Assembly (NCBI GenBank): GCA_965208125.1
Contig: OZ242320.1
Span: 3,680,001-3,744,000, forward strand
Source of the DNA: Candidatus Latescibacterota bacterium
GTDB taxonomy: Bacteria > Latescibacterota > UBA2968
DNA: 64,000 nucleotides
Direction: 5' to 3'
The notes under the pieces are model-generated. The model saw only the letters and a list, made by a program, of their open reading frames with translations. It had not been told where the DNA came from and searched no databases. The position numbers and the translations under genes are program-made. Shown here one piece after another: positions 1 through 28,030 of the stretch. Each line of letters begins with the position of its first letter. The first letter of the stretch is position 1.

Positions 1-1
1 A

Positions 2-607
2 GATTCGTTAAAGAAGGCGACACAGGAGCGTATTGCCGCTCAAAAAGCAGCAGATAGTCTCGCCGTAGTGCATCAAGAGGCGCGTGAGAAGACATCGCAA
101 AGATTGCAATGGGCCATCGTCTCTGGGGGCACTGTGGTCATTCTGGTGCTTCTCGGCTGGTTCATTTTCGCGCGTAGTAAAAAGGCACAATTGCAGAGTG
201 CCGCCTCTCGTTTGAGCGAGGCAGAACAAGAGGCTGAAGTCGCGCGACAGGCCGTGGCAGAGGCACCACAGCCCGCGCCTTTCAGATGTCTATTAGAAGG
301 TCAAGATAACACAGGCCAACCCTTTGCACTGAGTATATCGGCATTAGCCCTTGGTACGTCTTCAGGTGCCACACTTGGGAGAAGCCCTGCCAATGCGGAA
401 TTTATTATTGACCACGAGGCCGTATCTCGTGAACACATCAGGCTTTTCTATACCAATGAACATCTCTATACAGAAGATCTGAACACTCTGAACGGCACTA
501 AGATCAATGGTCGCCTGCTCAATCCGCACGAATCAGTGGTATTGCAAAACAATGATCAACTCGAGTTGGGGCCTGTTGTTTTTCAAGTGCGTTTGATGCA
601 GGAGTGA
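2..607 (+). CDS. Membrane-anchored FHA-domain protein, 5'-truncated by the window edge
   Basis: Frame is open from nt 2. TM WAIVSGGTVVILVLLGWFIF, then a C-terminal FHA (LGR..., VSREH, DLNTLNGT). The C-terminal region resembles that of 611..1930. Confidence 0.85.
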   Translation, partial: DSLKKATQERIAAQKAADSLAVVHQEAREKTSQRLQWAIVSGGTVVILVLLGWFIFARSKKAQLQSAASRLSEAEQEAEVARQAVAEAPQPAPFRCLLEGQDNTGQPFALSISALALGTSSGATLGRSPANAEFIIDHEAVSREHIRLFYTNEHLYTEDLNTLNGTKINGRLLNPHESVVLQNNDQLELGPVVFQVRLMQE

Positions 608-610
608 AAA

Positions 611-1930
611 TTGCAATCGATATGCAACTATTGGCGTCTTGTCGGTCTTGTTTTCGCGTTTCTGTTTTTTTCGCGCGATGCTGTCGCCGCGCCAGACTTT
701 GATGCGCTTGAGAAGAGTGTTGTACGTATTGTAACGCAGACAAATCAGGGGATTGGTACGGGTACTGGATTTATAATTAACGATCAAGGTTATATCGTCA
801 CGAACGTACACGTTATTGCCGGTAGCAATTTGATCAAAGCAATACCGACAAATTCCAATGCACTGTACGATGTTGAAGTGATTGCCATGTCCCAGGAACT
901 CGATCTGGCAATCGTACGCGCACCAGGGATCAATCTTCCACCGATTACGCTTTCGCTCGCGCCATCGAGAAAGGGGCAAAAGGTATGGTCTATTGGTTAC
1001 CCAGGCGGAGCCGATAGGAACAGACCTGCCCACGATCCAACTGTGCAGGATGGTGTTATAGGTAGAATTTTTTCAGGTGCATGGAAGGTACAAAAATTCA
1101 GGATTATTCAACACAACGCGCCTACGAACCCCGGTAACAGCGGCGGTCCTTTATTGGACGACTGTGGAAGGGTGATCGGTGTTAATACGCAAGCGTCTCT
1201 CGTCGTGATTGCCAGCCCATCTGATGGAGTAACGCGGGTGCCACACGCGGCGGGTATTTATTGGTCTTCCCATATTGAGGAATTAGCAAAACTGTTACGT
1301 GAAAATACAATTTCTTTTCAGTCGGACGACGATGAGTGTTTGGCGGCTGATTCTACTGGGCGTTCTGCGGAGGTGGAAAGAACGCGCCGGGAGGCGGACC
1401 AAGCAAAGAGTCAAGCAGATGATGCGAGCCAGAAATTTCTTATTTGGGTGATATTATTGGGTGCTGTGGCTGTGGTCGCTCTTATACTTGCTTTGAAGAA
1501 ACCTCGGCAGCAGATCATTCACGCTGCAGACCATATCAGCCGACGCCTTAAGGCAAAAGAACCTGCTGAGGCTGTTCAAAAACGAGCATCGGAAAAACTT
1601 CCAGAATACGGTCTGATGCTGACCGGGTTTGATGGTAATGGCAATCCCATCCGCATTGCTTTACCGCCAAACAGATTCGCTGGTCAGCGTCTGGGGCTTT
1701 CATTGGGCAGGCATCCCGAGTTGGTGGATGAAATTATCCATGACCAAAATGTGTCGAGGCGGCATATGCGAATAGCGGTGCAAGCGGGTCAATTTTATAT
1801 TGAAGATTTGAACTCTCGTAACGGCACTTTTCTGAATCACCACAAATTGTCTCCGTTTAAGCCAATGCTTTTAGACTATGGTGCGATAGTGAGATTGGGT
1901 GGTTTAGAGTTCATGATTTCAAAACAGTAA
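611..1930 (+). CDS. Trypsin-like (S1) serine protease + TM + cytoplasmic FHA domain
   Basis: Signal peptide; GTGF, TNVHV (His), LDLAI (Asp), GNSGGP (Ser); TM FLIWVILLGAVAVVALILAL; FHA LGRH, VSRRH, SRNGT. TTG start is uncertain. Confidence 0.9.
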   Translation: MQSICNYWRLVGLVFAFLFFSRDAVAAPDFDALEKSVVRIVTQTNQGIGTGTGFIINDQGYIVTNVHVIAGSNLIKAIPTNSNALYDVEVIAMSQELDLAIVRAPGINLPPITLSLAPSRKGQKVWSIGYPGGADRNRPAHDPTVQDGVIGRIFSGAWKVQKFRIIQHNAPTNPGNSGGPLLDDCGRVIGVNTQASLVVIASPSDGVTRVPHAAGIYWSSHIEELAKLLRENTISFQSDDDECLAADSTGRSAEVERTRREADQAKSQADDASQKFLIWVILLGAVAVVALILALKKPRQQIIHAADHISRRLKAKEPAEAVQKRASEKLPEYGLMLTGFDGNGNPIRIALPPNRFAGQRLGLSLGRHPELVDEIIHDQNVSRRHMRIAVQAGQFYIEDLNSRNGTFLNHHKLSPFKPMLLDYGAIVRLGGLEFMISKQ

Positions 1931-1946
1931 TGAGAATGCTTTGTAA

Positions 1947-2867
1947 ATGAAAAAACGCAACCGAGAAATTAATATTTTTAGCATGTCTGCTCTCGATCTA
2001 TTCGCTTCGGCAATGGGAGCTTTCATTTTAATTACCATTGTGCTGTTTCCCTTTTTTCCGAACTTGGGCGATTCATCGGAAAACATGGAAAAAGAAAAGG
2101 CCGAACTGTTACAGGAAAAGGCTAAACTACAACAGGAAAAGGCTAAACTACAACAGGAAAAGGCTAAACTACAACAGGAAAAGGCCAGATTGGAGCAAGA
2201 AAAAGCTAAACTACAACAAGAGAGAGCTAAACTGGAACAAGAAAAAGCCAAAACCCCCCAAAAAAATACCCCACTTGAAGAACGGGTTAAAGCTCTGCAA
2301 CAGGAGATTGATGACACATCTGTTTTATTGGGTATCAGGACCAAAGCAAAGAAGTTTGTGATGGTCGTGGATATGTCTGGCAGTATTTATCAACCAGGCA
2401 GCCAGGACTATCGCCGGTTCATTACATTGTCAGTACAGAATATGCTTGCTTCTTTTCAATCGGAGATAGAATTGGTTCTTATTGGTTTTCACGCCCCAAA
2501 TCGCAGGACACGATTGCACTATTGGCCTGAAAATAGGCATTATTTTCAGGTGCGGAAGAATACGCGAAATCGCGTTATAGCTACTATAAACAACTGGATG
2601 AGTCTCGTTAATGGTGGCACACCAACCCGTGAAGCTCTGTTGGCGGCATTGGCTCTCGATCCCGAAGAGATTATCCTCTTAAGCGATGGCGCACCCTCGG
2701 AAAATTGGCGGCAGGTCGTCAATGCTATAACAGTCAGAAACAGAAAAAAAATACCGATACACGCTGTTGCTGTTGGCAACTATGTCACAAAACGAGATTT
2801 TATCGATTTTTTGGTGCAGTTGACAGAGCGGAATCGCGGGTATCTCGTAGGTGCCAAACCCGGGTGA
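1947..2867 (+). CDS. Single-TM, coiled-coil, vWA-domain protein with a MotB/ExbD-like N-terminal TM
   Basis: KKRNREINIFSMSALDLFASAMGAFILI (Asp inside the TM); QQEKAKL heptads; MIDAS DMSGS, GGT, LLSDG. Confidence 0.85.
   Translation: MKKRNREINIFSMSALDLFASAMGAFILITIVLFPFFPNLGDSSENMEKEKAELLQEKAKLQQEKAKLQQEKAKLQQEKARLEQEKAKLQQERAKLEQEKAKTPQKNTPLEERVKALQQEIDDTSVLLGIRTKAKKFVMVVDMSGSIYQPGSQDYRRFITLSVQNMLASFQSEIELVLIGFHAPNRRTRLHYWPENRHYFQVRKNTRNRVIATINNWMSLVNGGTPTREALLAALALDPEEIILLSDGAPSENWRQVVNAITVRNRKKIPIHAVAVGNYVTKRDFIDFLVQLTERNRGYLVGAKPG
2112..2249 (+). repeat. 21-nt coding tandem repeat (QEKAKLQ): 3 exact copies plus degenerate copies
   Basis: caggaaaaggctaaactacaa at 2112, 2133 and 2154, followed by variants. 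Confidence 0.95.
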
Positions 2868-2986
2868 GGAGAAGTGCGAAGTAGTAAAGTATGAGTTGGA
2901 GTTAAGGTGTTGGAAGATGTTTTAGAATCTCTGGGGGAGAGACTATGCGGATGAGACGCACGTGCACCCATTGAGAGGATTTCGGG

Positions 2987-3349
2987 ATGTCTAATTTTTT
3001 TATTTATCGAATCGGTCGCGGTTCAAATGTGGATATTCGCATTGATGATAGCACAGTTTCCCGCATTCACGCAGAGTTGGTTGTGACTGCGAAGGAGACA
3101 TATTATCTGACTGATTGCGATAGTAGCGGCGGGAGTTATGTTGCGAGAAATGGCGAGTGGGAACCTATTACGCAGGATTTTATAGCTCCGATGGATGCAA
3201 TTCTACTCGGTCGGTATCAGACGACCGTACAGCAACTCATGGCGATGATTAATCAAGGTAGCCAGGATGTAAGACGCAAGGATGATTTACCCGAAGGACC
3301 GGTGCGTCGCAATGTAGATACGGGTGAAATTATAGGAGACGAGGACTGA
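2987..3349 (+). CDS. Small stand-alone FHA protein
   Basis: IGRG, TVSRIH, DCDSSGGS; AGGA-type RBS upstream. Confidence 0.85.
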   Translation: MSNFFIYRIGRGSNVDIRIDDSTVSRIHAELVVTAKETYYLTDCDSSGGSYVARNGEWEPITQDFIAPMDAILLGRYQTTVQQLMAMINQGSQDVRRKDDLPEGPVRRNVDTGEIIGDED

Positions 3350-3350
3350 C

Positions 3351-4136
3351 ATGGCAATGGGTCAAACAGTAGAGACGAATCAACGCCTCATCGCATCAGG
3401 TTTCAGTTTAGTAATAGGTATTATTCTTATCGCGCTACTGAGTATTTTTTTTAACAGTCCCGATTCACAAGTGGGTGCTTTCTTGCTTGACCGTCACACG
3501 AAGAATTTTCCCTATCCATTTACGATCCAAAATATCATGTGGCTTATGTTTTGCATAGGCTGTGGCGAGTTGTGGGGGCGATTTAGCCAGTCCAATTTGG
3601 AGTTGAAGCAAATCTCAAAGCGGTATCTTCCAGAAGACGATTCGATTATGTTGCGGGCGCAGGATCTCGGTGCTCTCTATCAAAAGATGCGCCCAAGGGA
3701 AGGGGAACGGACTTTTTTCTTGCAACGCTTAATCACACGCTGTATTTTGCAATTTCAAGGGAGCAGATCCGTCAATCAGACCAATTCTCTGTTAAATTCT
3801 TCTCTGGAATTATTCCAGCACGAGCTTGAACTCAAATACACTATGCTGCGATATCTCGTCTGGCTGATTCCCACGATGGGCTTTATTGGCACAGTTGTGG
3901 GGATCGCCTTTGCACTGGATTATGCAGCGAGCATTGAAAATCCCCAGGATCCGACGTTGCTGGCGGAGATAACCGGACGGTTGGGTGTTGCGTTTTATAC
4001 GACCTTACTCGCCTTGATTCAATCGGCACTGTTAGTTTTTGCCCTGCATATCGCCCAAGGAAGAGAAGAGATGGCTTTGAATCAATCGGGGCAGTACTGT
4101 TTGGATAATTTAATTAACCGACTCTATGAAAAATAG
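3351..4136 (+). CDS. MotA/TolQ/ExbB proton-channel family protein
   Basis: About 4 TM segments; family motifs LIPTMGFIGTVVGI and LGVAFYTTLLAL. Confidence 0.88.
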   Translation: MAMGQTVETNQRLIASGFSLVIGIILIALLSIFFNSPDSQVGAFLLDRHTKNFPYPFTIQNIMWLMFCIGCGELWGRFSQSNLELKQISKRYLPEDDSIMLRAQDLGALYQKMRPREGERTFFLQRLITRCILQFQGSRSVNQTNSLLNSSLELFQHELELKYTMLRYLVWLIPTMGFIGTVVGIAFALDYAASIENPQDPTLLAEITGRLGVAFYTTLLALIQSALLVFALHIAQGREEMALNQSGQYCLDNLINRLYEK

Positions 4137-4148
4137 GAGGGTAGTGTT

Positions 4149-4802
4149 ATGCCTGTTTATCGGGGACCCGATGGCAAGATTATTGAAGAAAAAACCAATA
4201 AGTTAGAAGATGTAACCCAGTCGACTGACAAGGCACAAAGACCTTTGCCACCAACACCACCGGGAAGCGGTCAAGCCGCCGGTGCGGGGCGTTTGGATGC
4301 ACCCACCCAGAAGATGGATGCGAGTGGTTCTTCATCCAATGCAATTACTGAGGAAAAGACTCGGGTCGTAGGTGGTCGTCGCAGGCAAGAAGATCAGCAG
4401 CGCTTGGAAGAACGCGCCGAGAAAGCCGATGGTATGGACGATCCAGTTGTTGGGTGGTTGGTTATTGTCGAGGGGCCGGGAAAGGGGAGGGCCATGCAAT
4501 TAGGTTATGGTTCTAATTCCATTGGCCGCGGGGAGACTGACCGTGTCAATCTCAATTTCGGTGATGATCAAATTTCGCGTAGCGGACATGCTATCATGAC
4601 TTACGATCCGCGTGGCAGAAAGTTTTACGTGCAGCACGGCGGTGGTACCAATCTGACCTACGTTAACGACCAGCCCGTGCTCATTCCGATTGAGCTGCCC
4701 GCACTGAGTCATATTAGCATCGGCAATACGATTCTGCGATTTGTGCCCTTATGTGGCGACGCATTTGATTGGCAGGATACGGGAGAAAATGCGCGAGAGT
4801 AA
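4149..4802 (+). CDS. FHA protein with a disordered Thr/Pro-rich N-terminus
   Basis: PVVGWLVIVEGPGKG, NSIGRG, ISRSGH, GGTN; RBS GGAGG. Confidence 0.88.
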   Translation: MPVYRGPDGKIIEEKTNKLEDVTQSTDKAQRPLPPTPPGSGQAAGAGRLDAPTQKMDASGSSSNAITEEKTRVVGGRRRQEDQQRLEERAEKADGMDDPVVGWLVIVEGPGKGRAMQLGYGSNSIGRGETDRVNLNFGDDQISRSGHAIMTYDPRGRKFYVQHGGGTNLTYVNDQPVLIPIELPALSHISIGNTILRFVPLCGDAFDWQDTGENARE

Positions 4803-4835
4803 ACCATAAAAGAATATATAATCAAGGCAAACTCT

Positions 4836-7316
4836 ATGAACGAAGCACAACATCCGATCCATGCCTTGCCTCAAGGATACCGACTACAGGAATACGAACT
4901 GGTACGCGTGCTCGGCTTCGGCGGCTTCGGCATGACCTATCTTGGCTTTGACCACAATCTGAACAAAGCTGTAGCCATCAAAGAATACCTGCCATCAGAT
5001 ATTTCCACCCGTACAAGCAATAATAGCGTTGTCCCACAAGCGAGCCAGTTTCAAGATGATTTTGAGTGGGGATTGGAGCGCTTTTTGGATGAAGCACGCA
5101 CCTTGGCTCGCTTTGACCATCGCAACATTATTAAAGTGTATCGTTTCTTTGAGGCACATGGCACGGCGTATATCGTGATGGAATATGCTGAGGGTGAGAC
5201 CTTGGCAGCATTTTTGGAACGCAAGGGGACGCTAACAGAAGCCGAACTCAGAGCGATACTATATCCGCTTCTGGATGGTCTGGAGGTGGTGCATCGTGCT
5301 GATTTTTTGCATCGGGACATCAAGCCTGGCAATATCATCATCCGGGATGAGGACAATTCGCCCGTGTTGCTGGACTTTGGTTCAGCGCGTCAGGCGATGG
5401 GAGCGAAGAGCCGTTCGGTTACGTCGATCATCACACCGGGATATGCGCCGATAGAGCAGTATTCGAGTCGAGGTGATCAGGGTCCTTGGACGGATATCTA
5501 TGCATTAGGTGGTGTATGCTATCGTACATTGACTGGTGAAGTGCCAGATGATGCGACGGATCGTGTTCGGGATGATCCACTTATTTCAGTAGTTGAGCTT
5601 TGTGCGGGTCAAGCGAGTTCTGGATTTTTATCTGCGATAGATTGGGCGTTGGTGGTGGATGAGGGTGATCGTCCGCAAAGTATAGGTGTATGGCGTACTG
5701 CGTTGGGGGAAGAAATACCAAGGAATGTGAGTGCTCAGCCGTCAATCACGGCGTCTGTGCCTGCCCCTCCATTGGAAGAAGAGAAGCGTGAGATAGTTGA
5801 TAGCATAGCTGGGAGGCAGCCTGATGCATTTCCATCGGAAAGAGAAAGGGGGACAAGAGGCAAGGTACTTGCTGTGATCATAAGCGTGGTTGTTGTCCTG
5901 ATTGTAGGCATAATTTATATTGATCAAGCTGAGAAGCAGCGTCAGGAGTTAGTAGCAGAACAAGCAAGACTGAAAAAAGAAAAAGCAAGATTGGCAGCAG
6001 AAAGAGCGCGAATAGCGGCAGAGCAAGCTGAGAAGCAGCGTCAAGAGCAAGCAGCATTGGAGAAGCAGCGTCAAGAGCAAGCAGCATTGGAGAAGCAGCG
6101 TCAAGAGCAAGCAGCATTGGAGAAGCAGCGTCAAGAGCAAGCAGCATTGGAGAAGCAGCGTCAAGAGCAGGCGAAAACAAAAGAAGAACTACAGGAACCA
6201 GTGTTGCACGGTGATGTGCGTCGAGGATTTTTAGGTGTACAGATTAGTGACTTAGATCCGGTGCGAGCTAAGGCTTTAGGGGCGTCCAATATCCAAGGCG
6301 TGGTAATTGAGCAGGTAATACCGGGAAAAGCTGCGGACAGAGCAGGTGTCAAGACCAATGATATTGCGATTGCAGTTGATGGTCACTCGGTGAGCGACGT
6401 AACCGAGTTGACTAGTCGGATCGGGCGTGTGCGTCCTGGTACAGAAGTCGAACTGTCAATATTGCGCAATGGTAGGAAGATGCGCATTAAGGTTGTTTTA
6501 GATGCATTGTCCGAGACAGTAGTGACTGCACATAGCCCGCTAAACAACCTGAACAATATTCAGCCTGGCCGACGTTTTAAGGACTGTTCCGTGTGTCCTG
6601 AGATGATCGTCGTTCCATCTGGTTCATTTACTATGGGGTCACCGTCCTCTGAAGTCGGACGTAAGGATACTGAAAGTCCGCAACGTCAGGTGCGTTTCAC
6701 TAGGCCATTTGCCGTGGGAGTCTATGAAGTGACATTTGAGGAATGGGATGCCTGTGTGAATGCGGGAGGATGTAACAACTCTTATCCTATTGATCAGAAT
6801 TGGGGGCGAGGCAACCGGCCCGTGATCAATGTGAGTTGGAACGATGCACAGGCTTATATACGGTGGTTATCTGAACGGACGGGCAAGCATTATCGATTAT
6901 TGAGCGAATCGGAATGGGAATATGTGGCGCGTGCAGGAACGACGACCCCATTTCATTTTGGAGCAACTATATCTACGGATCAAGCGAATTACAATGGCAA
7001 TTATACATACAACACTGGTCACAAAGGCCTATTTAGAAAAAAGACCTTACCGGTGGGAACGCTTTCACCGAACCAATTTGGTTTGTACGACATGCATGGC
7101 AATGTAATAGAGTGGACTCAGGACTGTTGGAACGACAGTTATAATCGAATATCGAGTAATGGGGCAACTCGTGAGTATGGGAACTGTGGTTTTCGCGTGA
7201 TTCGCGGTGGTTCGTGGTACAACGAACCACGGTATCTCCGCTCAGCAAATCGTGGTCGGGGTACGCGTGAGATTCGGAATGCCTATATCGGATTTCGTGT
7301 CGCCCGTACGTTCTGA
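4836..7316 (+). CDS. Ser/Thr kinase 1: kinase-TM-coiled coil-PDZ-FGE-sulfatase (SUMF1-like)
   Basis: GFGGFG, VAIKE, HRDIKPGN, DFG, YAPIE; TM; HtrA-type PDZ (RGFLGVQI...); FGE motifs FTMGS, RLLSESEWEY, GLYDMHGNVIEW, RGGSW, GFRV. Confidence 0.93.
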   Translation: MNEAQHPIHALPQGYRLQEYELVRVLGFGGFGMTYLGFDHNLNKAVAIKEYLPSDISTRTSNNSVVPQASQFQDDFEWGLERFLDEARTLARFDHRNIIKVYRFFEAHGTAYIVMEYAEGETLAAFLERKGTLTEAELRAILYPLLDGLEVVHRADFLHRDIKPGNIIIRDEDNSPVLLDFGSARQAMGAKSRSVTSIITPGYAPIEQYSSRGDQGPWTDIYALGGVCYRTLTGEVPDDATDRVRDDPLISVVELCAGQASSGFLSAIDWALVVDEGDRPQSIGVWRTALGEEIPRNVSAQPSITASVPAPPLEEEKREIVDSIAGRQPDAFPSERERGTRGKVLAVIISVVVVLIVGIIYIDQAEKQRQELVAEQARLKKEKARLAAERARIAAEQAEKQRQEQAALEKQRQEQAALEKQRQEQAALEKQRQEQAALEKQRQEQAKTKEELQEPVLHGDVRRGFLGVQISDLDPVRAKALGASNIQGVVIEQVIPGKAADRAGVKTNDIAIAVDGHSVSDVTELTSRIGRVRPGTEVELSILRNGRKMRIKVVLDALSETVVTAHSPLNNLNNIQPGRRFKDCSVCPEMIVVPSGSFTMGSPSSEVGRKDTESPQRQVRFTRPFAVGVYEVTFEEWDACVNAGGCNNSYPIDQNWGRGNRPVINVSWNDAQAYIRWLSERTGKHYRLLSESEWEYVARAGTTTPFHFGATISTDQANYNGNYTYNTGHKGLFRKKTLPVGTLSPNQFGLYDMHGNVIEWTQDCWNDSYNRISSNGATREYGNCGFRVIRGGSWYNEPRYLRSANRGRGTREIRNAYIGFRVARTF
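6030..6169 (+). repeat. 30-nt perfect coding tandem repeat (EKQRQEQAAL), about 4.6 copies
   Basis: agaagcagcgtcaagagcaagcagcattgg repeated exactly from 6031. Confidence 0.97.
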
Positions 7317-7363
7317 GTCTTACATTTTTAATTTATAATCACTCACAGGTCTTTTAGTTGGCG

Positions 7364-7393
7364 TTGATATACGTTCCGATTCGGTTCTATACT
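7364..7393 (+). promoter_or_regulatory. Putative sigma70 promoter of the orphan gene
   Basis: TTGATA-18 nt-TATACT; TAAGGAGG RBS before ATG 7439. Confidence 0.45.
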
Positions 7394-7438
7394 GATGTCC
7401 ACTATGAATAATCATCCATTTTTTAAGGAGGAATAGCA

Positions 7439-8002
7439 ATGAAATGGCACTATGTATGGCACTTGATGACTGTTTTCATTTTGAGTTCTCCTGCCATGTG
7501 TATTGACTCATCTGATCTCACAATTGGCGACCGTATTCGGGTTACTTTCGCAAATGGAACTATCATCACAGGTTCTATGATCTCAATGGAGGTAGATGGC
7601 TTGAAAATGAAACAAGATGGGCAGAGCCATTTTCAGAGGATGGTGACTTTTAGCGATGTCGAGCGGATAGACCACAGTATTGGTGTCAATAAGCCTCTAT
7701 TCACACCTACTATTATTTGCGGTCTGATAGGTTCAGGTATCTATACACTTTCAAAATATAAACAGGTTGAAGGACAGGAAGGGGTTCCAACAGAAGATAA
7801 GAAGTATGAATTCAGGGATTGGGATAACAAACAGGCGGCTTACTTTACGCTCGGTGGCATAACAACGGGATTTTTAATAGGCCTGATGCTCCCAGGCAAA
7901 GAGAATTGGGAGAAAGTTGAGTTAATGCAATTTGGTTTAGATATTGACATGAATTTAGGACATAGTGGAATAGCGATGCTTGAGTTGAAAATTAAATTTT
8001 AA
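7439..8002 (+). CDS. Hypothetical exported/membrane protein
   Basis: Strong RBS, signal-peptide-like N-terminus, two Gly-rich hydrophobic segments; no family recognised. Confidence 0.75.
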   Translation: MKWHYVWHLMTVFILSSPAMCIDSSDLTIGDRIRVTFANGTIITGSMISMEVDGLKMKQDGQSHFQRMVTFSDVERIDHSIGVNKPLFTPTIICGLIGSGIYTLSKYKQVEGQEGVPTEDKKYEFRDWDNKQAAYFTLGGITTGFLIGLMLPGKENWEKVELMQFGLDIDMNLGHSGIAMLELKIKF

Positions 8003-8249
8003 ATATTGATATCCAGGCAGGCAGAACTCGAAGCACAGTCATTTCTTGCTCTATTAGGTAATCTCTGGAAAAGATGAACAGCGTCATCAACTTATAGTGC
8101 CTGCTTTGACATATTTGTGCAGTAGCCACTGTGGTAGCCCTAAGGACGCCAATGTTGTCTGGGGTAGGGGTCATTCAAAAAAAAACGATTTGATCCTTAC
8201 CCCAAACTGTCAATCCCTTTGATAAACTCAGAGCACAGCATTTTTTATC

Positions 8250-8281
8250 GAGCGTATAGGTCTTCTCAATGCGCTTTTTTT
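8250..8281 (+). terminator. Possible intrinsic terminator
   Basis: GAGCGTAT...ATGCGCTT stem followed by a T run. Confidence 0.4.
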
Positions 8282-8294
8282 ATTTTCTATATCT

Positions 8295-8382
8295 GGTCGG
8301 TTACTTGTATGATGTAGCTGGTAGCGATGCTCTTGAAGCGGTAAAAGTATTGCATCGTTAAGGTGGTTTGAAGGTGAGATAA
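8295..8382 (+). pseudogene. Relic of an ankyrin gene 3' end
   Basis: Reads LYDVAGSDALEAVKVLHR*GG, matching the tails of the ankyrin kinases (LHNAVEKNNYETVEVLRRYGG). Confidence 0.6.
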
Positions 8383-8409
8383 GCTAATTTTTAAATAATC
8401 GGAAATGCT

Positions 8410-10566
8410 ATGAACGAAGCACAACAACCTCTCAATGCTCTGCCTCAGGGGTATCGGCTTCAAGAATATGAACTGGTACGTGTCCTCGGCTTTGGCGGAT
8501 TTGGCATGACCTATCTCGGCTTTGACCACAATCTGAACAAAGCCGTGGCCATCAAGGAATACCTCCCATCTGATATTGCTATCCGTACAAACGATAACAG
8601 CGTTGCTCCGCAAGTCAGCCAGTTTCAAGATGATTTTGAGTGGGGATTGGAGCGTTTCTTAGACGAAGCACGCACCTTGGCTCGTTTTGATCATCGCAAC
8701 ATTATTAAAGTATATCGTTTCTTTGAGGCACACAGCACAGCCTATATCGTGATGGAATATGCCGAGGGTGAGACCTTGGCAGCATTTTTGGAACGCAAGG
8801 GGACGCTAACAGAAGCCGAACTCAGAGCGATACTATATCCGCTTCTGGATGGTCTGGAGGTGGTGCATCGTGCTGATTTTTTGCATCGAGATATAAAGCC
8901 TGGTAACATCATCATCCGAGACGAGGACAATTCACCAGTATTGTTGGACTTTGGTTCAGCGCGTCAGGCGATGGGAGCAAGGAGCCGTTCGGTTACGTCG
9001 ATCATCACACCGGGATATGCGCCGATAGAGCAGTATTCGAGTCGAGGTGATCAGGGTCCTTGGACGGACATCTATGCGTTAGGAGGTGTATGCTATCGTA
9101 CATTGACTGGTGAAGTGCCAGATGATGTGACGGATAGGGTGCGGAATGATCCTTTAATTCCGGTATCTGAGCTGTGTGCGGGTCAAGAGAGTGCGAGTTT
9201 TTTATCTGCGATAGATTGGGCGTTATCTGTAGATGAGGGTGATCGTCCGCAAAGTATAAATGTCTGGCGAACTGCGTTGGGAGAAGAGACACCGAGGATT
9301 GAGAATGTTCAACCATCAGTCACGGCGTCTGTGCCTGCCTCTCCATTGGAAGAAGAGAAGCGTGAGGCAGTTGTTGGCAAAACCATGAGGCAGCCTGATG
9401 CATTTCCATCAGAAAGGGAAAGGGGAACAAGAGGAAAGTTGCTTGCTGTGATCGGAAGTGTGGTTGCTGTCCTGATAGCAGGCATAATTTATATTGATCA
9501 AGCTGAGAAACAGCAGAAAGAGCAAGTGGCATTGGAAAAGCAGCGCCAAGAGTTGGTAGAAGAAAAAGCAAGATTGGCAGCCGAGCAAGCAGAGAAGCAA
9601 CGTCAGGAGCAAGCAGCGTTAGAAAAGCAACGTCAGGAGCAGGCCTTGTTGGAAAAGCAGCATCAGGAGCGGGCTACAGAAAGAGCGCGACTAGCGGCAG
9701 AGCAAGCTGAGAAGCGGCGCCAGGAGCAAGAGGCTGAAAAAACAAGACGACTGGCGAAGTGGCGGGATCCCAAGACGGGCAGAACATCGCTGCATGATGC
9801 GGCCTATAAAAATGCTCCTGAGACAGCAGAAGTATTGCTCAAGCACGGGGCTGACCCTAATGCGCAAGACAGAGATGGTCATACGCCATTGTACAATGCT
9901 GTGAGGAAATGTAGTCGTGAGGTAGTAGAGCTATTGCTCAAACAAGGTGCCGATGTCAACGCAAAGAGCAATTTTGGTGGGACGCCACTGCACGAAGTGT
10001 TACAGACACATGTTAGTGCGGTAATCCAGTCAAGAAAGTATTCCAGTTTTGAAAAAAAAAGAGGTGATGAGTTTCGTAAGAAAGCAGAAGTTGCTCTTGA
10101 TATCTTCAAGTTATTGCTCAAACATGGTGCTGATGTCAATGCGAAGAACAATTTTGGTGGGACGCCACTGCACAGCAGTATTATGTATAACTCCTCTGAT
10201 GAGACTAAGATAGTTGAGATGGCAGAGCTATTGCTTAAACACGGTGCCGATGTCAATGCGAAGGACAACGGGGGCTTGACGCCGCTACACACTGGAGCGC
10301 ACAATGCGAAGAATAACCAAATTTCTGTTGAGATGGCAGAGCTATTGCTTAAATATGGTGCCGATCCCAACACGAAGGATAAAGATGGCCGCACACCGTT
10401 GCACTGGGCTGCTTGGAACATAAATTCTCATAAGTTTGCAGAGCTATTGCTCAAACATGGTGCCGATGTCAATGCGAAGGACAATTTAGGCGAGACACCG
10501 TTGCACGATGCGAGAATGCGTTCTCCTCGTACGGCGGGGATATTGAGACGTTACGGTGGACAATAA
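8410..10566 (+). CDS. Ser/Thr kinase 2: kinase-TM-coiled coil-ankyrin repeats
   Basis: Complete kinase motifs; TM; about 7 GxTPLH...LLKHGADVNAK repeats. Confidence 0.93.
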   Translation: MNEAQQPLNALPQGYRLQEYELVRVLGFGGFGMTYLGFDHNLNKAVAIKEYLPSDIAIRTNDNSVAPQVSQFQDDFEWGLERFLDEARTLARFDHRNIIKVYRFFEAHSTAYIVMEYAEGETLAAFLERKGTLTEAELRAILYPLLDGLEVVHRADFLHRDIKPGNIIIRDEDNSPVLLDFGSARQAMGARSRSVTSIITPGYAPIEQYSSRGDQGPWTDIYALGGVCYRTLTGEVPDDVTDRVRNDPLIPVSELCAGQESASFLSAIDWALSVDEGDRPQSINVWRTALGEETPRIENVQPSVTASVPASPLEEEKREAVVGKTMRQPDAFPSERERGTRGKLLAVIGSVVAVLIAGIIYIDQAEKQQKEQVALEKQRQELVEEKARLAAEQAEKQRQEQAALEKQRQEQALLEKQHQERATERARLAAEQAEKRRQEQEAEKTRRLAKWRDPKTGRTSLHDAAYKNAPETAEVLLKHGADPNAQDRDGHTPLYNAVRKCSREVVELLLKQGADVNAKSNFGGTPLHEVLQTHVSAVIQSRKYSSFEKKRGDEFRKKAEVALDIFKLLLKHGADVNAKNNFGGTPLHSSIMYNSSDETKIVEMAELLLKHGADVNAKDNGGLTPLHTGAHNAKNNQISVEMAELLLKYGADPNTKDKDGRTPLHWAAWNINSHKFAELLLKHGADVNAKDNLGETPLHDARMRSPRTAGILRRYGGQ

Positions 10567-10587
10567 ATATAAAATATCGGAAATGCT

Positions 10588-12819
10588 ATGAACGACGCAC
10601 AACACCCGATCCAGGCCTTGCCTCAAGGATACCGACTACAGGAATACGAACTGGTACGCGTGCTCGGCTTCGGCGGCTTCGGCATGACCTATCTTGGCTT
10701 TGACCACAATCTGAACAAAGCTGTAGCCATCAAAGAATACCTGCCATCAGATATTTCCACCCGTACAAGCAATAATAGCGTTGTCCCACAAGCGAGCCAA
10801 TTTCAAGATGATTTTGAGTGGGGCTTGGAGCGTTTCTTAGATGAAGCGCGTACCTTAGCCCGCTTTGACCATCGCAACATTATTAAAGTGTATCGTTTCT
10901 TTGAAGCACATGGCACGGCGTATATCGTGATGGAATATGCTGAGGGTGAGACCTTATCGGCATTTCTGGAACACAAAGGGATACTGAAGGAATCAGAACT
11001 CAGAGCGATACTATATCCGCTTCTGGATGGTCTGGAGGTGGTGCATCGTGCTGATTTTTTGCATCGAGATATAAAGCCGGGCAACATCATCATTCGTGAT
11101 GAAGATAATTCGCCTGTATTACTGGACTTTGGTTCAGCGCGTCAGGCGATGGGAGCAAGGAGCCGTTCGGTTACGTCAATCATCACGCCGGGATATGCGC
11201 CGATAGAGCAGTATTCCAGTCGTGGGAATCAGGGTCCTTGGACAGACATCTATGCGTTGGGTAGTGTATGTTATAGTGCGTTGACCGGTGAAGTTCCTGA
11301 CGATGCTACGGATAGGGTACGGAATGATCCTTTGATTCCAGTGGTTGAGTGCTGTGCGGGTCAAGCGAACTCAGGGTTTTTATCAGCGATAGACTGGGCG
11401 TTGGTGGTAGATGAGGGTGATCGTCCGCAAAGTATCAGTGTATGGCGTACTGTATTGGGAGAAGAGACACCGAGGATTGAGAATGTTCAACCATCAGTCA
11501 CGGTGTCTGTGCCTGCCCCTCCCTTGAAAGAAGAGAAGCGTGAGGCAGTTGTTAGCACGGCTAGGATGCAGCCTGATGCATCCCCATCGGAAAGAAAAAA
11601 ACACACAAGAGGAAAGCTGCTTGCAGTGGTCATAAGTGTGGTTGCTGTCCTGATTGTAGGCATAATTTATATTGATCAAGCCGAGAAGCAGCGTCAAGAG
11701 TTGGCCGTGTTGGAAAAGCAGCGTCAAGAGTTGGCAGCAGAAAAAACAAGGTTGGCGGCAGAGCAAGCTGAGAAGCAGCGCCAGGAGCAAGCAGCAGAAA
11801 GAGCGCGACTGGCGGCAGAGCAAGCAGAGAAGCAACGTCAGGATCAGGAAGCAGAAAGCGCCAGACAAGCTGCTGAGCGTCAGGATAAAATCACACGATA
11901 TAAGATGAAGTTTGAGGAGGCGTTGGGACGTAATGATTTTGATATGGCGGGTAGGTATGTAGATTCTATCCGAGCAGTTGATAGTAATGCGTCAATGTTG
12001 TCAAATTTGGAAGGTCGCTTGTCGGAGGCGCGTCAACGCTTAGTGAACAGGACATTCAGAGACTGTGGAGAATGTCCACAGATGGTAGAGGTGCCGTTGG
12101 GTTCGTTTACAATGGGATCACCTAGTTGGGAGTGGGACCGTGATGATGATGAGGGGCCTATTCATCGTGTGAGGATAGATTATAGGTTAGCAGTGGGTAT
12201 GTATGAAGTGACCTTTGGCGAGTGGGATGCGTGCGTGTCTGCTGGTGGTTGTAGGGGGTATATTCCAGATGATGAGGGCTGGGGACGAGGGAACCATCCG
12301 GTGATCAATGTGAGTTGGAAAGATGCTCAGTCTTATGTGTCGTGGTTGTCGCAACGGACAGGTGAATCGTATCGTTTACTGAGCGAGTCAGAGTGGGAGT
12401 ATGTGGCGCGAGCTGGATCGGTGACAGCTCGTTATTGGAGAGAACCGGCAAATGATCAGTGCCGTTATGGGAATGGTGCGGATGAGACAGCGAAACGATA
12501 TAATAGTAGCTGGACTGTTGCATCGTGTGACGATGGTTATTATGGGACATCACCAGTGGGAAATTACGAGGCAAATAATTTTGGTTTGTATGATGTGTTG
12601 GGCAACGTGTGGGAATGGACTGAGGATTGTTATAAAGATAGCTATTCGGGATTACCTGCTGACGGTTCTGCGCAGGCGTCTGAGGACTGCGCTGAACGCG
12701 TGTTGCGTGGCGGTGCGTGGAGCAGCAAGCCGAGAGACCTCCGCTCGGCTGACCGCTTCCGCTACTCTCCCGAGGTCCGTGCTGTCCATTGGGGTTTTCG
12801 AGTTACCCGGCGTTTTTAG
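10588..12819 (+). CDS. Ser/Thr kinase 3: kinase-TM-coiled coil-FGE-sulfatase
   Basis: Kinase motifs; TM; FRDCGECPQMV, FTMGS, SESEWEY, GNVWEW, RGGAW, GFRV. Confidence 0.93.
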   Translation: MNDAQHPIQALPQGYRLQEYELVRVLGFGGFGMTYLGFDHNLNKAVAIKEYLPSDISTRTSNNSVVPQASQFQDDFEWGLERFLDEARTLARFDHRNIIKVYRFFEAHGTAYIVMEYAEGETLSAFLEHKGILKESELRAILYPLLDGLEVVHRADFLHRDIKPGNIIIRDEDNSPVLLDFGSARQAMGARSRSVTSIITPGYAPIEQYSSRGNQGPWTDIYALGSVCYSALTGEVPDDATDRVRNDPLIPVVECCAGQANSGFLSAIDWALVVDEGDRPQSISVWRTVLGEETPRIENVQPSVTVSVPAPPLKEEKREAVVSTARMQPDASPSERKKHTRGKLLAVVISVVAVLIVGIIYIDQAEKQRQELAVLEKQRQELAAEKTRLAAEQAEKQRQEQAAERARLAAEQAEKQRQDQEAESARQAAERQDKITRYKMKFEEALGRNDFDMAGRYVDSIRAVDSNASMLSNLEGRLSEARQRLVNRTFRDCGECPQMVEVPLGSFTMGSPSWEWDRDDDEGPIHRVRIDYRLAVGMYEVTFGEWDACVSAGGCRGYIPDDEGWGRGNHPVINVSWKDAQSYVSWLSQRTGESYRLLSESEWEYVARAGSVTARYWREPANDQCRYGNGADETAKRYNSSWTVASCDDGYYGTSPVGNYEANNFGLYDVLGNVWEWTEDCYKDSYSGLPADGSAQASEDCAERVLRGGAWSSKPRDLRSADRFRYSPEVRAVHWGFRVTRRF

Positions 12820-12895
12820 TTCTTACTACTTTGCTTTTTGGGGATGTGGGAGAAGAAATGATGATGAGGATTTTGGGGTATGTGAGGGTTTTTCG

Positions 12896-12974
12896 GGCCA
12901 TCCTGTGGTTTATCTGGATGGGCTGGTTGATCCACCTGTGGTCGGTTCTGAACGCCGCCCGGCGGAGGCCGTAA
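12896..12974 (+). pseudogene. 5'-deleted copy of the small membrane protein gene at 20123
   Basis: AILWFIWMGWLIHLWSVLNAARRRP matches the C-terminus of 20123..20320; the N-terminal part is missing. Confidence 0.7.
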
Positions 12975-13034
12975 GCGCATACACTTTAATACCAACAATC
13001 GCGCTCAAGTATAGCACGCGATAAGAGGAAGTAT

Positions 13035-14234
13035 ATGGATCTGTTAGACGGACGATTTGCCGCGCAGCAAATTCCCGGTGGGCGGGAATATCAGGAGGAC
13101 GATTACGGTCTGATTGAGCCGGGTGATCCCGATGCTGATGGAAGTGAGGTATTATTGATAGCCGATGGGATGGGTGGACACGTCAGCGGCGATACGGCGA
13201 GCAGGACGGTGGTCAAAACCTTTGTGGAGACCTATCACTGCACGGATGGACCGGTGCCGGATCGTCTGCGTGCTTGTCTCAATGCGGCCAATGATGCTCT
13301 CGCCGAAGCAATCAAAGAAAACCCTGAATTGGAGGGCATGGGATCGACTGTGGTCGCAGCCGTTGTTTCACAACACGGACTCGACTGGATCAGTGTGGGC
13401 GATTCCCCCTTGTGGTTGTTCCGCGATGGCAAGTTGCGCCGCCTCAATGCTGATCACTCTATGGCACCTGTGCTTGCGAACCTGGTGGCGGTTGGGCGCA
13501 TGACCGAGGAAGAAGCGGCGACGGATTCCAAACGCCATGCCCTGCGTTCGGCGGTTATGGGCGATGAGATTCACATGATTGATGTCTCATCGCAACCTGT
13601 TGCGATTCGGAAAAGCGACCGCCTGTTATTGGCGAGTGATGGTTTAATGACGCTTGAGGATGGGGAGATCGCGGGTATTTTACAGAATATGCAGGACGCA
13701 ACTTTGTCAGAAGTCGCCGATGCACTCATCCAAGCTGTGGAAGAGGTCGGACATCCCAATCAGGACAATACGACGGTGTTGCTCTATGCTCCGAAGGCCG
13801 ATTGTGGGGTGGAAACGCTTCCCGTCGATACTGCCGAGGAGGAGTCCAGACAGCGCGAGGAGACTCAGCGATCAGGGCGAAAGAAGGGCCTATTTTGGAT
13901 ATTGTTATGCGGGATCTTGATTGCACTTGGAGTAATCACGTATTGGATCACGTCGCGCACGCACCACAAAGAAGCAGCGTCTGAATCCCCACCTGCACCG
14001 CAGGTAGAGCCAACCAAACAGGATGTTTCTCCACCTGCTACGAGAACTCCTGATTTACCGGAAGTGCAACCGGAGGGCAAATCCCCACAGGCAGAGCCAC
14101 CTGCAAAGGATGCGCCAGCACAACTCGACACAGGCAAGGTGAATGAGGAATCACCGAAGAAAGAAACCGAAGATATTCCAGCGAAGCGATCAACAACACT
14201 CGACACCACAGCCCAATCGAAAGGAACGAGGTGA
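13035..14234 (+). CDS. PP2C/PPM Ser/Thr phosphatase with TM and Pro-rich tail (copy 1)
   Basis: REYQED, IADGMGGH, SVGDS, DHS, LASDGL, QDNTT; TM GLFWILLCGILIALGVITYW. Confidence 0.93.
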   Translation: MDLLDGRFAAQQIPGGREYQEDDYGLIEPGDPDADGSEVLLIADGMGGHVSGDTASRTVVKTFVETYHCTDGPVPDRLRACLNAANDALAEAIKENPELEGMGSTVVAAVVSQHGLDWISVGDSPLWLFRDGKLRRLNADHSMAPVLANLVAVGRMTEEEAATDSKRHALRSAVMGDEIHMIDVSSQPVAIRKSDRLLLASDGLMTLEDGEIAGILQNMQDATLSEVADALIQAVEEVGHPNQDNTTVLLYAPKADCGVETLPVDTAEEESRQREETQRSGRKKGLFWILLCGILIALGVITYWITSRTHHKEAASESPPAPQVEPTKQDVSPPATRTPDLPEVQPEGKSPQAEPPAKDAPAQLDTGKVNEESPKKETEDIPAKRSTTLDTTAQSKGTR

Positions 14235-16264: not shown

Positions 16265-16297
16265 AATAAGCTGATTCTTAAAAAAAACGAAAATGCT

Positions 16298-18013: not shown

Positions 18014-18088
18014 TTTAATAAGCGGGCTACTCCGACAATGACCGAAACCATGTCCTGCGTAGCAACGACGGTCAATGATTGGTAATTG

Positions 18089-18190
18089 GATGTGATCGCC
18101 GTGTTATCATCGGCGGTACCTGTCTGATGGGGGCGTGGAAGCTGGCTCTTGAACAGTAGTAGTATTGTGCCTTTACGGTGAGCGAAGGTG
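18089..18190 (+). pseudogene. Second relic of an ankyrin gene 3' end
   Basis: DVIA.../GGTCLMGAWKLALE/(T)VVVLCLYGERR* with frameshifts; aligns with 8329-8382 at nucleotide level. Confidence 0.55.
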
Positions 18191-18224
18191 AAATAAGCTA
18201 ATTTTTGAAATAATTGGAGATGGT

Positions 18225-22931: not shown

Positions 22932-23213
22932 TCAATGATAGTCAACGATCTCGACCTTCCACGATGCACCATCGCGCCAGACGAAGCAGATACGCCATCG
23001 GTTATTGATGCGAATACTGTATTGCCCTCGACGATCCGCTCGTAAAGCCTCGAGACGATTGCCAGGTGGTGTAAGCAAGTCGTTGAGCCTATTAGCAGCA
23101 TCAATCGCCAGAAGCTTCGTCCGTGCCCGTTGCTGGAGTTGCAGAGGCAGGCCTCGAACAGCATGTCCCGCAAAGATAGCCGCGGTGCGCTTGTCTGCAA
23201 AGCTCTTGATCAT
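22932..23213 (-). CDS. higB: HigB-family (RelE-like) toxin
   Basis: MIKSFADK, PPGNRLEAL, YSIRINNRWRICF, VEIVDYH; toxin-first gene order. Confidence 0.92.
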   Translation of the reverse strand: MIKSFADKRTAAIFAGHAVRGLPLQLQQRARTKLLAIDAANRLNDLLTPPGNRLEALRADRRGQYSIRINNRWRICFVWRDGASWKVEIVDYH

Positions 23214-27041: not shown

Positions 27042-27056
27042 AAAAAGAGGAAGATT

Positions 27057-28016: not shown

Positions 28017-28030
28017 AAGATGGCTCGGCG

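Follow-up and report, generated by a model that had tools for sequence, protein, structure and literature searches.

A TolQ/ExbB-type channel protein and an Asp-helix vWA protein as probable partners in an inner-membrane motor, encoded within a Ser/Thr phosphorylation gene cluster of a Latescibacterota bacterium

Ion-driven motors of the 5:2 type power flagella, TonB-dependent uptake, Tol-Pal envelope maintenance, gliding and Zorya defence. To our knowledge, the plug subunit of every characterised motor of this type either anchors to peptidoglycan or passes force to a separate transducer. The window analysed here, a stretch of 64,000 nucleotides from a Candidatus Latescibacterota bacterium, encodes a TolQ/ExbB-like protein (A, the channel-type product of 3351..4136) near a membrane-anchored vWA protein (B, the product of 1947..2867), and raises the question of whether B could be the plug subunit of A. 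The open reading frames of B, of a small FHA protein (2987..3349) and of A lie where the initial annotation had placed them. The genes considered are as follows.

2..607, + strand: membrane-anchored FHA protein, 3′ part, cut by the window edge; TM segment, then FHA (Pfam FHA E = 1.7e-15)
611..1930, + strand: protease-TM-FHA protein with N-terminal trypsin-like (HtrA/MarP-like) serine protease, TM segment and C-terminal FHA (Trypsin_2 E = 4.7e-29, FHA E = 1.9e-16)
1947..2867, + strand: B, 306 aa, with basic tail, Asp-bearing pore-type TM helix, coiled-coil stalk and vWA head with MIDAS
2987..3349, + strand: small cytoplasmic FHA protein, 120 aa (Pfam FHA E = 1.4e-12)
3351..4136, + strand: A, 261 aa, divergent TolQ/ExbB/MotA-family channel subunit (Pfam, alignment, hhalign, AF2 and Foldseek)
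4149..4802, + strand: FHA protein, 217 aa, with low-complexity N-terminal half and C-terminal FHA (Pfam FHA E = 4.1e-7; NCBIfam FhaB/FipA-like partial match)
4836..7316, + strand: Ser/Thr kinase, followed by TM segment, coiled coil, PDZ and FGE-sulfatase-like domains (Pkinase E = 4.1e-39, PDZ_2, FGE-sulfatase E = 7.2e-57)
8410..10566, 10588..12819, 14231..16264, 16298..18013 and 18225..19970, + strand: five more Ser/Thr kinase paralogues, their C-terminal parts being ankyrin or FGE-sulfatase domains (Pfam)
13035..14234, + strand: PP2C phosphatase (Pfam)
20383..21579, + strand: second PP2C phosphatase (Pfam PP2C_2 E = 1.4e-11)

A is a member of the MotA/TolQ/ExbB superfamily. The Pfam family PF01618 (MotA_ExbB) matched A with an E-value of 5.7e-10 and 39.5 bits against a cut-off of 22.9, and the same domain is carried by 120 of the 120 A homologues among the matches listed; no NCBIfam family matched. 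When the AF2 model of A (pLDDT 82, pTM 0.74) was compared with the PDB by Foldseek, TolQ ranked nearest, followed by ExbB, MotA/PomA and ZorA, and the TM-score against TolQ was 0.60–0.65 (normalised to the target). These fold matches are modest, with a best E-value of 2.6e-3, the rest weaker and none at E ≤ 1e-3. The profile of A returned eight weak matches from the PDB, all of them TolQ, PomA or MotA (E = 0.49–0.87), and hhalign against E. coli TolQ gave E = 7.8e-4 on the G-x-x-G-T-V-x-G-I helix of TolQ, with which the T181 helix of A aligns. Residues P174, G180, T181 (codon 3891..3893) and G184, together with T217, T218 and A221, lie in the two pore-lining inner helices and are invariant in 32 of 32 A sequences; no conserved Thr was seen in the predicted cytoplasmic loop in the same alignment. 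Unlike TolQ and ExbB, A has an extra conserved helix (residues 59–88), and it is 11–17% identical to the solved TolQ/ExbB chains listed. In the AF2 model its C-terminus lies about 25 residues past the last TM helix. The Pfam score above cut-off and the TolQ-like predicted fold bear out the original assignment of A to the TolQ/ExbB type. A 384-aa relative annotated as FHA+MotA_ExbB (P0159) was considered as a natural fusion that would fix the topology of A and was rejected: about 35 FHA residues are followed by low-complexity sequence and then by a normal A, the case is confined to a single contig, and it looks like frameshifted read-through.

The candidate partner, B, divides into three parts.

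Residues 1–40 (1947..2066, + strand): N-terminal tail and TM helix; Asp17 codon at 1995..1997
Residues 43–123 (2073..2315, + strand): coiled-coil stalk; 21-bp repeats at 2111..2252
Residues 125–303 (2319..2855, + strand): vWA head; D142 codon at 2370..2372

In the AF2 model the TM helix of B follows the basic tail and spans residues 15–36 (hydrophobic window 18–36), with Asp17 at its N-terminal edge. A long helix (residues 43–102) runs through the heptad stalk and is partly encoded by a 21-bp tandem repeat of 6.8 copies. Residues 125–303 form an alpha/beta domain that gave 103 vWA-type PDB matches at E ≤ 1e-3 in Foldseek, the best being ITIH1 at 2.1e-7. The Pfam VWA score of the single B sequence was under the cut-off (20.6 versus 23.8 bits), and NCBIfam returned coiled-coil noise only. 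The MIDAS residues D142, S144, S146, T227 and D247 show no variation across the 33 aligned homologues. The periplasmic part of B consists of the long helix and the vWA domain instead of an ExbD/TolR fold or an OmpA-like peptidoglycan-binding domain, and neither Pfam nor NCBIfam returned an ExbD, MotB_plug or OmpA match for B. The predicted model, the Foldseek matches and the MIDAS conservation all agree with the first description of B as a protein with a basic tail, a single Asp-bearing TM segment, a coiled-coil stalk and an intact vWA MIDAS.

Compared by eye, B and E. coli TolR, ExbD and MotB share one layout, in which a basic tail and then an E/D-I-N-I/V motif precede the Asp, which lies at the N-terminal boundary of the TM helix (D17 in B, D23 in TolR, D25 in ExbD, D32 in MotB). 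Profile methods detected no such relationship. The hhalign probabilities for the B helix against E. coli TolR, ExbD and MotB were 0.24%, 0.11% and 0.79%, and in the MotB alignment Asp17 was one residue off register with respect to D32. The helix profile gave chance matches only in the PDB (insect Orco, E = 0.45–1), Pfam found nothing relevant in 25 B N-termini, and the two PADLOC ZorB matches of B (E ~1e-3) may be driven by the coiled coil. Because no homology of the B helix to TolR, ExbD or MotB is statistically detectable, the equivalence of the Asp residues is one of position and motif only; the correspondence with ExbD D25 and MotB D32, which the initial annotation proposed to check by alignment, stands as a shared layout but is not reproduced by significant alignment.

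The first 40 residues are the best-conserved stretch of B. Of 121 aligned rows, 120 have the equivalent of Asp17 and the remaining one has a gap there, a level of conservation far beyond chance. The initial annotation had allowed for an Asp that varies among homologues; it was retained in all 93 helix-bearing ORFs of the 80 related loci and the window, and in 150 of the best 150 of 1198 representatives (50% identity) that match a 50-residue helix profile. P35, F37 and N39, just past the TM helix, are also conserved. No His occurs within residues 1–40 in 25 of 25 aligned N-termini, and an S-H-L-S-type motif is absent from the TM helix. Overall, the sequence evidence gives B the topology that a TolR/ExbD/MotB-type pore helix would have, together with the invariant Asp.

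Different heads are found on the same conserved helix: vWA domains of two types, and a domain rich in β structure. A second B gene is present in 13 of the 80 related loci; the window has a single one. In three of the two-gene loci (L042, L048 and L068) the heads are unrelated (18–21% identical) while the helices are 95–100% identical, as would be expected if both proteins must fit one A channel. Pfam found nothing in this β-rich alternative head; its likeness to DUF2135, which comes from an Atlas feature score of 0.90 alone, is a lead.

The genes for A and B are tightly linked. A was found inside the fetched locus in 71 of 80 B loci, at a median distance of 382 bp from B and at 16–28 bp in 12 loci, with A either following or preceding B. 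The linkage spans Latescibacterota, Gemmatimonadota, Binatia, Alpha- and Gammaproteobacteria and Arcobacter, and the nearest relatives of the window genes are in Latescibacterota MAGs. A was absent from the fetched DNA in 9 of 80 loci, and in three of these nine (L072, L078 and L080) B stands alone among unrelated genes. The claim that no ExbD, TolR or MotB gene accompanies the pair held throughout the DNA scanned: no ExbD/TolR/MotB/OmpA-type domain was found in 8 plus 40 large ORFs of the window or in its 10 small ORFs (at least 70 aa, outside the large ones, scanned together with 2 large ORFs), and no ExbD, TolR, MotB or OmpA_C in 85 proteins from 22 related loci, including unassigned ORFs around B in 10 loci. 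A canonical ExbD just upstream, a possibility raised at the outset, was not found upstream of B in the three closest loci with unassigned ORFs scanned (L002, L003 and L009).

The gene content around the pair is conserved, the cluster comprising genes for protease-TM-FHA, B, small FHA, A, FHA, PP2C and Ser/Thr kinase proteins. Of the 80 related loci, 57 have a protease+FHA gene, and many loci, such as L001–L006, have two upstream of B; the gene cut by the window edge (2..607) occupies the position of the first of two protease-TM-FHA genes in relatives. The stop codon of the small FHA gene lies 1 nt ahead of the A start codon, and in 55 of the 71 A-bearing loci the gene immediately before A encodes an FHA protein of fewer than 200 aa. 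Directly downstream of A, an FHA gene occurs in 66 of these 71 loci and is followed by a PP2C gene in 57. Counted over all 80 loci, PP2C is found in 69 and a kinase gene in 71. A connection to phosphorylation, first suspected from the small FHA gene, is much stronger than supposed: the genes of four FHA proteins, of PP2C phosphatases and of Ser/Thr kinases surround the pair in a conserved cluster. A scan of positions 1..8500 revealed no promoter or terminator site marking an operon boundary; the 13 promoter-like sites agree with the 13.8 expected by chance, and the 11 terminator-like sites are not far from the 6.7 expected (sd 2.4). PADLOC returned generic kinase matches and weak ZorA/ZorB matches only, so that the cluster does not correspond to any defence system it recognises.

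Taken together, we consider it fairly likely that A and B are subunits of a TolQR/ExbBD-type inner-membrane motor that is probably switched by phosphorylation and exerts force on a ligand of the vWA domain. A would form a pentameric channel, and a B dimer held together by the coiled-coil stalk would put its two N-terminal helices into the channel lumen. There Asp17 would lie opposite T181 and T217/T218, which are conserved in A, and carry the proton, whose flow would turn or pull the B dimer. The vWA head with its intact MIDAS would sit about 80 stalk residues off the membrane. Because B has no peptidoglycan-binding or TolA/TonB-contacting domain and ends in vWA, the force would act directly on a MIDAS-bound periplasmic or outer-membrane ligand. 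The complex would probably be switched by the Ser/Thr phosphorylation module, that is, by membrane kinases that have FGE-sulfatase-like sensor domains in the periplasm, by PP2C phosphatases, by the FHA proteins flanking the A gene, and by membrane-tethered periplasmic trypsin-like proteases with cytoplasmic FHA domains. Gating or anchoring of the motor through metal-dependent vWA ligand binding, as the initial annotation proposed, is pure conjecture. We put forward only tentatively, as a possibility, a fuller version, a compact machine of the envelope in which periplasmic sensor kinases and PP2C set the phospho-state of a 5:2 proton motor, FHA proteins dock on the TolQ-like pentamer to switch it on or off, and the Asp-helix dimer reels in or twists a MIDAS-bound periplasmic or outer-membrane ligand, possibly presenting it to the FHA-tethered proteases, with the exchangeable heads (two vWA types and the DUF2135-like beta domain) lending one motor different ligand specificities.

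Other arrangements of the same parts have to be weighed against the motor. The pair could be a gated ion channel or sensor, in which ligand binding at the vWA head or proteolytic cutting of the stalk unplugs A, and the resulting proton leak or conformational change is read by FHA, kinase and PP2C proteins, as an envelope-stress, host-contact or phage-defence switch loosely resembling Zorya. We regard this as rather unlikely. It would account for a pair embedded in a signalling cluster with proteases, and for heads that are swapped on a constant helix, which is the pattern of exchangeable input domains; P35, F37 and N39 could act as a plug, and the weak ZorA/ZorB matches point the same way. Those matches, however, reach E-values of 3e-4 to 1e-3 only, A ends without a ZorA-like long tail, and no ZorC/ZorD-like or other effector gene is present. 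Moreover, the conserved Thr/Asp arrangement is that of coupled proton flow in motors, and a long, rigid coiled coil of variable length fits a device that reaches and pulls equally well.

A further separation of the two proteins seems improbable to us, namely that B serves the Ser/Thr cluster as no more than a receptor or adhesin that holds its vWA domain at the membrane, its TM Asp having another use, for example helix-helix association with kinases or proteases, and that A works alone or with a canonical TolR/ExbD encoded elsewhere in the genome. The lack of detectable homology of the B helix to ExbD, TolR or MotB and the B genes without a nearby A would suit such a division, as would the fact that the absence of ExbD extends no further than the neighbourhoods scanned. 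It is difficult to reconcile with an invariant Asp on a helix more conserved than the head, with the shortest B-A gaps in 12 loci, with the near-identical helices of paralogous B genes within one locus and with the lack of ExbD from every neighbourhood scanned; published AF3 models of pairs of this kind also place the helix inside the pentamer (PMC12204202). Finally, B has the TM helix, long linker and globular head of a TolA/TonB-like force transducer and might sit outside the A pentamer, the true pore subunit being missing or unrecognised. A separate vWA family of that type is described in the available text of PMC12204202, where it adjoins tolQ and tolR-like genes; tolR-like genes are absent here, and the B TM helix has an Asp in place of a His or S-H-L-S-type motif, so that we give this arrangement almost no credence.

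If the fuller, phosphorylation-switched version of the motor is true, it would be the first 5:2 motor known under Ser/Thr phosphorylation control, and the first in which the plug subunit doubles as the ligand-binding force transducer. Confirmation of a plug subunit with a ligand-binding head, controlled in this way, would bring to the class an output and a control logic that are new to it. Members of the family come from several phyla, and among them are named genome records of Alteromonas (Alteromonas lipotrueae, L068) and LSUCC0112 (L076), possibly cultured strains. With a family so large and members possibly in culture, the hypothesis may be testable at the bench.

The comparison with known systems begins with TolQ-TolR and ExbB-ExbD, which A resembles in its predicted fold and its G-x-x-G-T inner helix, and the pair in the adjacency of its genes. 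Like TolR and ExbD, B has a single N-in helix with a basic tail, an E-I-N-I-type motif and an Asp at the cytoplasmic edge; unlike them, B has no match to their profiles, its periplasmic part is a coiled coil and a vWA domain, and there is no TolA/TonB-like third subunit. With MotA-MotB and PomA-PomB the pair shares the superfamily of the channel subunit and a plug subunit that joins an Asp helix to a periplasmic head, but the head of B is vWA and not an OmpA-like peptidoglycan binder, no flagellar genes are nearby, and the MotB comparison by hhalign stayed at 0.79%. Zorya ZorA-ZorB is likewise a 5:2-type pair outside motility and transport, and PADLOC gave weak matches to ZorA2 (E = 2.8e-4) and ZorB; it differs in that A, at 261 aa, has no long ZorA tail, B has no peptidoglycan-binding domain, and neither ZorC/D nor ZorE-type neighbours are present. 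In the threonine-phosphorylation pathway of the T6SS, the PpkA kinase with its periplasmic vWA acts with PppA and Fha1. That pathway likewise combines PP2C and FHA proteins with a membrane-bound Ser/Thr kinase and a vWA domain in the periplasm, all acting at the envelope. In the present cluster it is the Asp-helix protein and not the kinase that bears the vWA, there are no T6SS genes, and TagH-type FHA matches in NCBIfam were far below the cut-off.

The Agl-Glt gliding machine of Myxococcus, described in the available text of PMC11761067 as comprising about 17 proteins, combines the AglRQS motor, GltG with FHA domains and the vWA adhesin CglB, and a published model of it docks an FHA domain onto the pentamer of the TolQ-like AglR from the cytoplasmic side. 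A TolQ-like motor, FHA and a vWA/MIDAS head, which in Agl-Glt is at the far end of the force chain, are thus common to both. Unlike B, the Agl-Glt vWA is a separate outer-membrane lipoprotein, and its FHA is part of a TonB-like transducer (PMC11761067); the other Glt genes are absent here, the single link being a weak GltG match of the small FHA protein (E = 7.5e-6, far below cut-off).

The closest relatives in concept come from an in silico study in Mol Biol Evol in 2025 (PMC12204202), which took away the novelty that the initial annotation had implied for a vWA-bearing B subunit. It describes TolQ-like genes with vWA genes that encode an Asp-bearing "transpore-helix" (TPH), without tolR/exbD, and its AF3 5:2 models put the Asp pair in a threonine ring. 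In our literature search vWA, TolQ and Asp were linked only in the available text of that paper, no paper tied FHA, PP2C or kinase genes to a TolQ-like gene of this type, and no experimental study of any family member was found. The likeness to its family, seeded from Idiomarina, is drawn from its description; a search from an Alteromonas homologue returned no named Idiomarina protein. According to that description the TPH vWA genes are "predominantly" in heterologous pairs, unlike the single B gene in the window, and the description makes no mention of a coiled-coil stalk, an FHA/PP2C/kinase/protease cluster or heads other than vWA; neither the phosphorylation cluster around the pair nor interchangeable heads on the same helix were found in print. 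The features in common are a TM-tethered vWA with a TolR/ExbD-like Asp helix free of an S-H-L-S/His motif, close co-occurrence with a tolQ homologue (71/80) with no tolR, exbD or motB nearby, a conserved Thr in the channel subunit, the inclusion of Proteobacteria, and two vWA genes in some loci (13/80 here). Within the kind that this recent paper proposed, the A-B pair is a genuine and so far uncharacterised member (PMC12204202).

The window opens with a single 21.6-kb array of genes, all on the same strand.

Genes of the array (assignments from Pfam, except for B and the 187-aa ORF)
2..607, +, TM-FHA protein, 3' end of the gene
611..1930, +, trypsin-like protease-TM-FHA protein
1947..2867, +, B, the 306-aa protein with an Asp-bearing TM helix
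2987..3349, +, FHA protein of 120 aa
3351..4136, +, A, the 261-aa MotA/TolQ/ExbB-family protein
4149..4802, +, FHA protein of 217 aa
4836..7316, +, Ser/Thr kinase with TM, PDZ and FGE-sulfatase-like parts
7439..8002, ORF of 187 aa with a hydrophobic N-terminus, between kinase genes 1 and 2
rest of the array, to 21579, +, five further paralogous kinases and two PP2C phosphatases

The intergenic gaps between the first seven genes range from 1 to 119 bp, and A starts 1 nt from the stop codon of the 120-aa FHA gene. Pfam, NCBIfam and PADLOC all gave no match for the 187-aa ORF. The six paralogous kinases (4836..19970) have near-identical N-terminal kinase domains and swapped C-termini, which carry either ankyrin repeats or an FGE-sulfatase-like part with or without PDZ; the two PP2C phosphatases (region 4836..19970 and 20383..21579) are also paralogous. 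This set of kinase genes, which follows the A and B genes, is locally amplified. A lone ankyrin ORF is located at 21961..22383, and in the gap after the array a HigB/RelE-like toxin ORF (22935..23213, -) adjoins a weak HTH_26 ORF (22528..22923, -), likely forming a type II toxin-antitoxin pair.

The initial annotation had read A as a TolQ/ExbB-type protein. This reading was borne out by a Pfam MotA_ExbB match above the cut-off (39.5 bits versus 22.9), by a TolQ-like AF2 fold, and by an hhalign alignment with E. coli TolQ (E 7.8e-4, 55 columns) centred on the G-x-x-G-T-V-x-G-I helix. No NCBIfam model matched. A profile of 32 homologues gave eight weak matches against the PDB (E 0.49-0.87), solely to TolQ, PomA and MotA chains. 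The folds nearest to the AF2 model (pLDDT 82, pTM 0.74) were Acinetobacter and E. coli TolQ, followed by ExbB, MotA/PomA and ZorA, with TM-scores of 0.60-0.65 normalised to the target; none of the matches in the structure search reached E<=1e-3. Residues P174, G180, T181, G184, T217, T218 and A221 are invariant (32/32 sequences). Because the Pfam, profile and fold matches and the invariant residues agree, we conclude that A, though divergent, genuinely belongs to the superfamily and retains the pore threonines.

In the AF2 model of B (pLDDT 77, with low confidence for residues 1-18), residues 15-36 form a TM helix, residues 43-102 a long helix and residues 125-303 an alpha/beta domain. Foldseek placed the alpha/beta domain among vWA domains, for example those of ITIH1, CLCA1, integrin I domains and BatB, with 103 matches at E<=1e-3, and the MIDAS residues D142, S144, S146, T227 and D247 are invariant in 33/33 sequences. 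The heptads of the stalk are encoded by a 21-bp tandem repeat (2111..2252, 6.8 copies, 82% matches). These results uphold the proposed layout of Asp-bearing TM helix, stalk and intact MIDAS vWA domain. The length of the stalk varies widely among homologues, with differences of tens of residues, a pattern suggesting that gain and loss of repeats tunes how far the head reaches. Conservation in B is highest over its N-terminal 40 residues; the Asp, whose lack of conservation would by the initial annotation have spoken against the pair, is present in 120 of 121 aligned rows, the remaining row being a gap.

The proposed equivalence of this Asp to that of ExbD and MotB held for layout and failed as statistical homology. 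In B, TolR, ExbD and MotB alike a basic tail is present and the hydrophobic helix has an Asp at its N-terminal edge, and TolR, ExbD and B share an E/D-I-N-I/V motif, although the spacing in B differs by two residues. However, the B helix had no ExbD/TolR/MotB match in Pfam, NCBIfam or the PDB profile search, and hhalign did not match it to E. coli TolR, ExbD or MotB. Because the layout is shared and the statistics are negative, we hold that B probably acts like a TolR/ExbD-type plug, and do not assign it to those families. A canonical partner was sought with Pfam in all large ORFs of the window and its 10 free small ORFs, and in 85 proteins of 22 related loci; the latter took in, for 10 loci, the unassigned ORFs around B and, for the three closest loci, the upstream regions. 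No ExbD, TolR, MotB or OmpA_C domain was found in any of these, in line with the earlier reading that such a partner is missing, and none lay upstream of B in those three loci, where an ExbD gene would have spoken against the pair.

At E<=1e-3, database relatives numbered 648 for B and 2186 for A, and many of the listed pairs come from contigs of the same length. A genome scan gave 288 relatives of B, and the ORFs of the best 80 loci were searched with HMMs made from the window's own proteins. These 80 loci belong to Latescibacterota, Gemmatimonadota, Binatia, Alpha- and Gammaproteobacteria and an Arcobacter; the closest B relatives among them are from Latescibacterota (up to 76% identity). 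A was found within 71/80 loci, with a small FHA gene immediately upstream in 55 of the 71, an FHA gene immediately downstream in 66, and this downstream gene followed by PP2C in 57. A kinase was present in 71/80 loci, PP2C in 69/80 and the protease-FHA gene in 57/80; in 12 loci B and A are separated by merely 16-28 bp. The nine loci without A have an IS110 transposase right after B, are short contigs, or carry B alone amid unrelated genes (L072, L078, L080). The first case is locus L008, on a Latescibacterota chromosome; an IS110-family ORF (10801-11863) directly follows B there, and because genes for the small FHA protein, A, the FHA protein and PP2C are absent, the cluster seems to be disrupted in this copy. 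One database protein, P0159 (384 aa, annotated FHA+MotA_ExbB), is probably not a real fusion but an artefact of assembly or gene calling, as its sequence resembles that of a small-FHA gene which a frameshift carries on into A.

A 50-residue profile of the B helix matched 1198 representatives at E<=1e-3 (655 at E<=1e-10), nearly always from residue 1, and the Asp motif was kept in 150/150 of the best of these 1198. Among these best 150, the 102 representatives of at least 200 aa carried vWA heads of two types (66), a beta-rich head of ~110 aa (35) or another head (1). Pfam gave nothing for the beta-rich head; DUF2135, at 0.90 in an Atlas feature search, is a lead only. The beta-rich head replaces vWA at L042:11738-12514, L043:5250-5966, L046:10001-10804 and ~20 further loci, in proteins that share B's Asp-bearing N-terminal helix and its coiled coil. 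Two classes can be told apart among the loci that have two B genes. In the first, the helices are 95-100% identical, and the heads are either unrelated (18-21% identical; L042, L048, L068) or 63% identical (L034, L037). In the second (L038, L055, L056, L059, L063, L065, L079), the helices are 45-62% identical, resembling the "heterologous pairs" of the literature (PMC12204202). One helix with differing heads within a locus is as expected if the helix must fit one A channel.

We consider it fairly probable that these genes encode a TolQR-like complex, in which B would take the place of TolR/ExbD alongside A and would itself be the output that binds a ligand, while the flanking FHA proteins would put the complex under Ser/Thr phosphorylation control. 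The main rival, a gated channel or sensor for which the exchangeable heads would serve as inputs, seems to us rather unlikely. For the TolQR-like complex we infer the assembly of A with B, its stoichiometry, proton coupling, ligand and pThr target.

The window contains a second vWA system, unrelated to B: a MoxR AAA+ ATPase, a DUF58/vWA protein and a TPR protein in a row (34456..36840, -, and an unassigned 431-aa ORF at 36919..38214), resembling Bat/MoxR-vWA operons. At 24649..29722 (-), genes for two circularly permuted ATP-grasp proteins are grouped with those for an Alpha-E domain protein and a transglutaminase-like protein; together they make up a known conserved gene quartet.

The idea of a motor of a TolQ-like protein and an Asp-helix vWA protein, put forward in the initial annotation, is not new, because the accessible part of PMC12204202 already describes the same kind. 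There, TM-tethered vWA proteins and tolQ homologues co-occur tightly with no tolR/exbD nearby, AF3 5:2 models place the Asp within a threonine ring, and the vWA proteins are proposed to rotate in the pentamer and transduce force; the support given there is computational. That part of the paper makes no mention of FHA, PP2C or kinase genes alongside such pairs, and our literature searches found no paper mentioning them there. The accessible part of PMC11761067 offers two precedents: a model that puts an FHA domain on the cytoplasmic side of a TolQ-like pentamer, and a vWA adhesin that ends a motor-driven chain. As far as that part of PMC12204202 extends, the genes of the window match its pairs in every testable feature except the paired arrangement.
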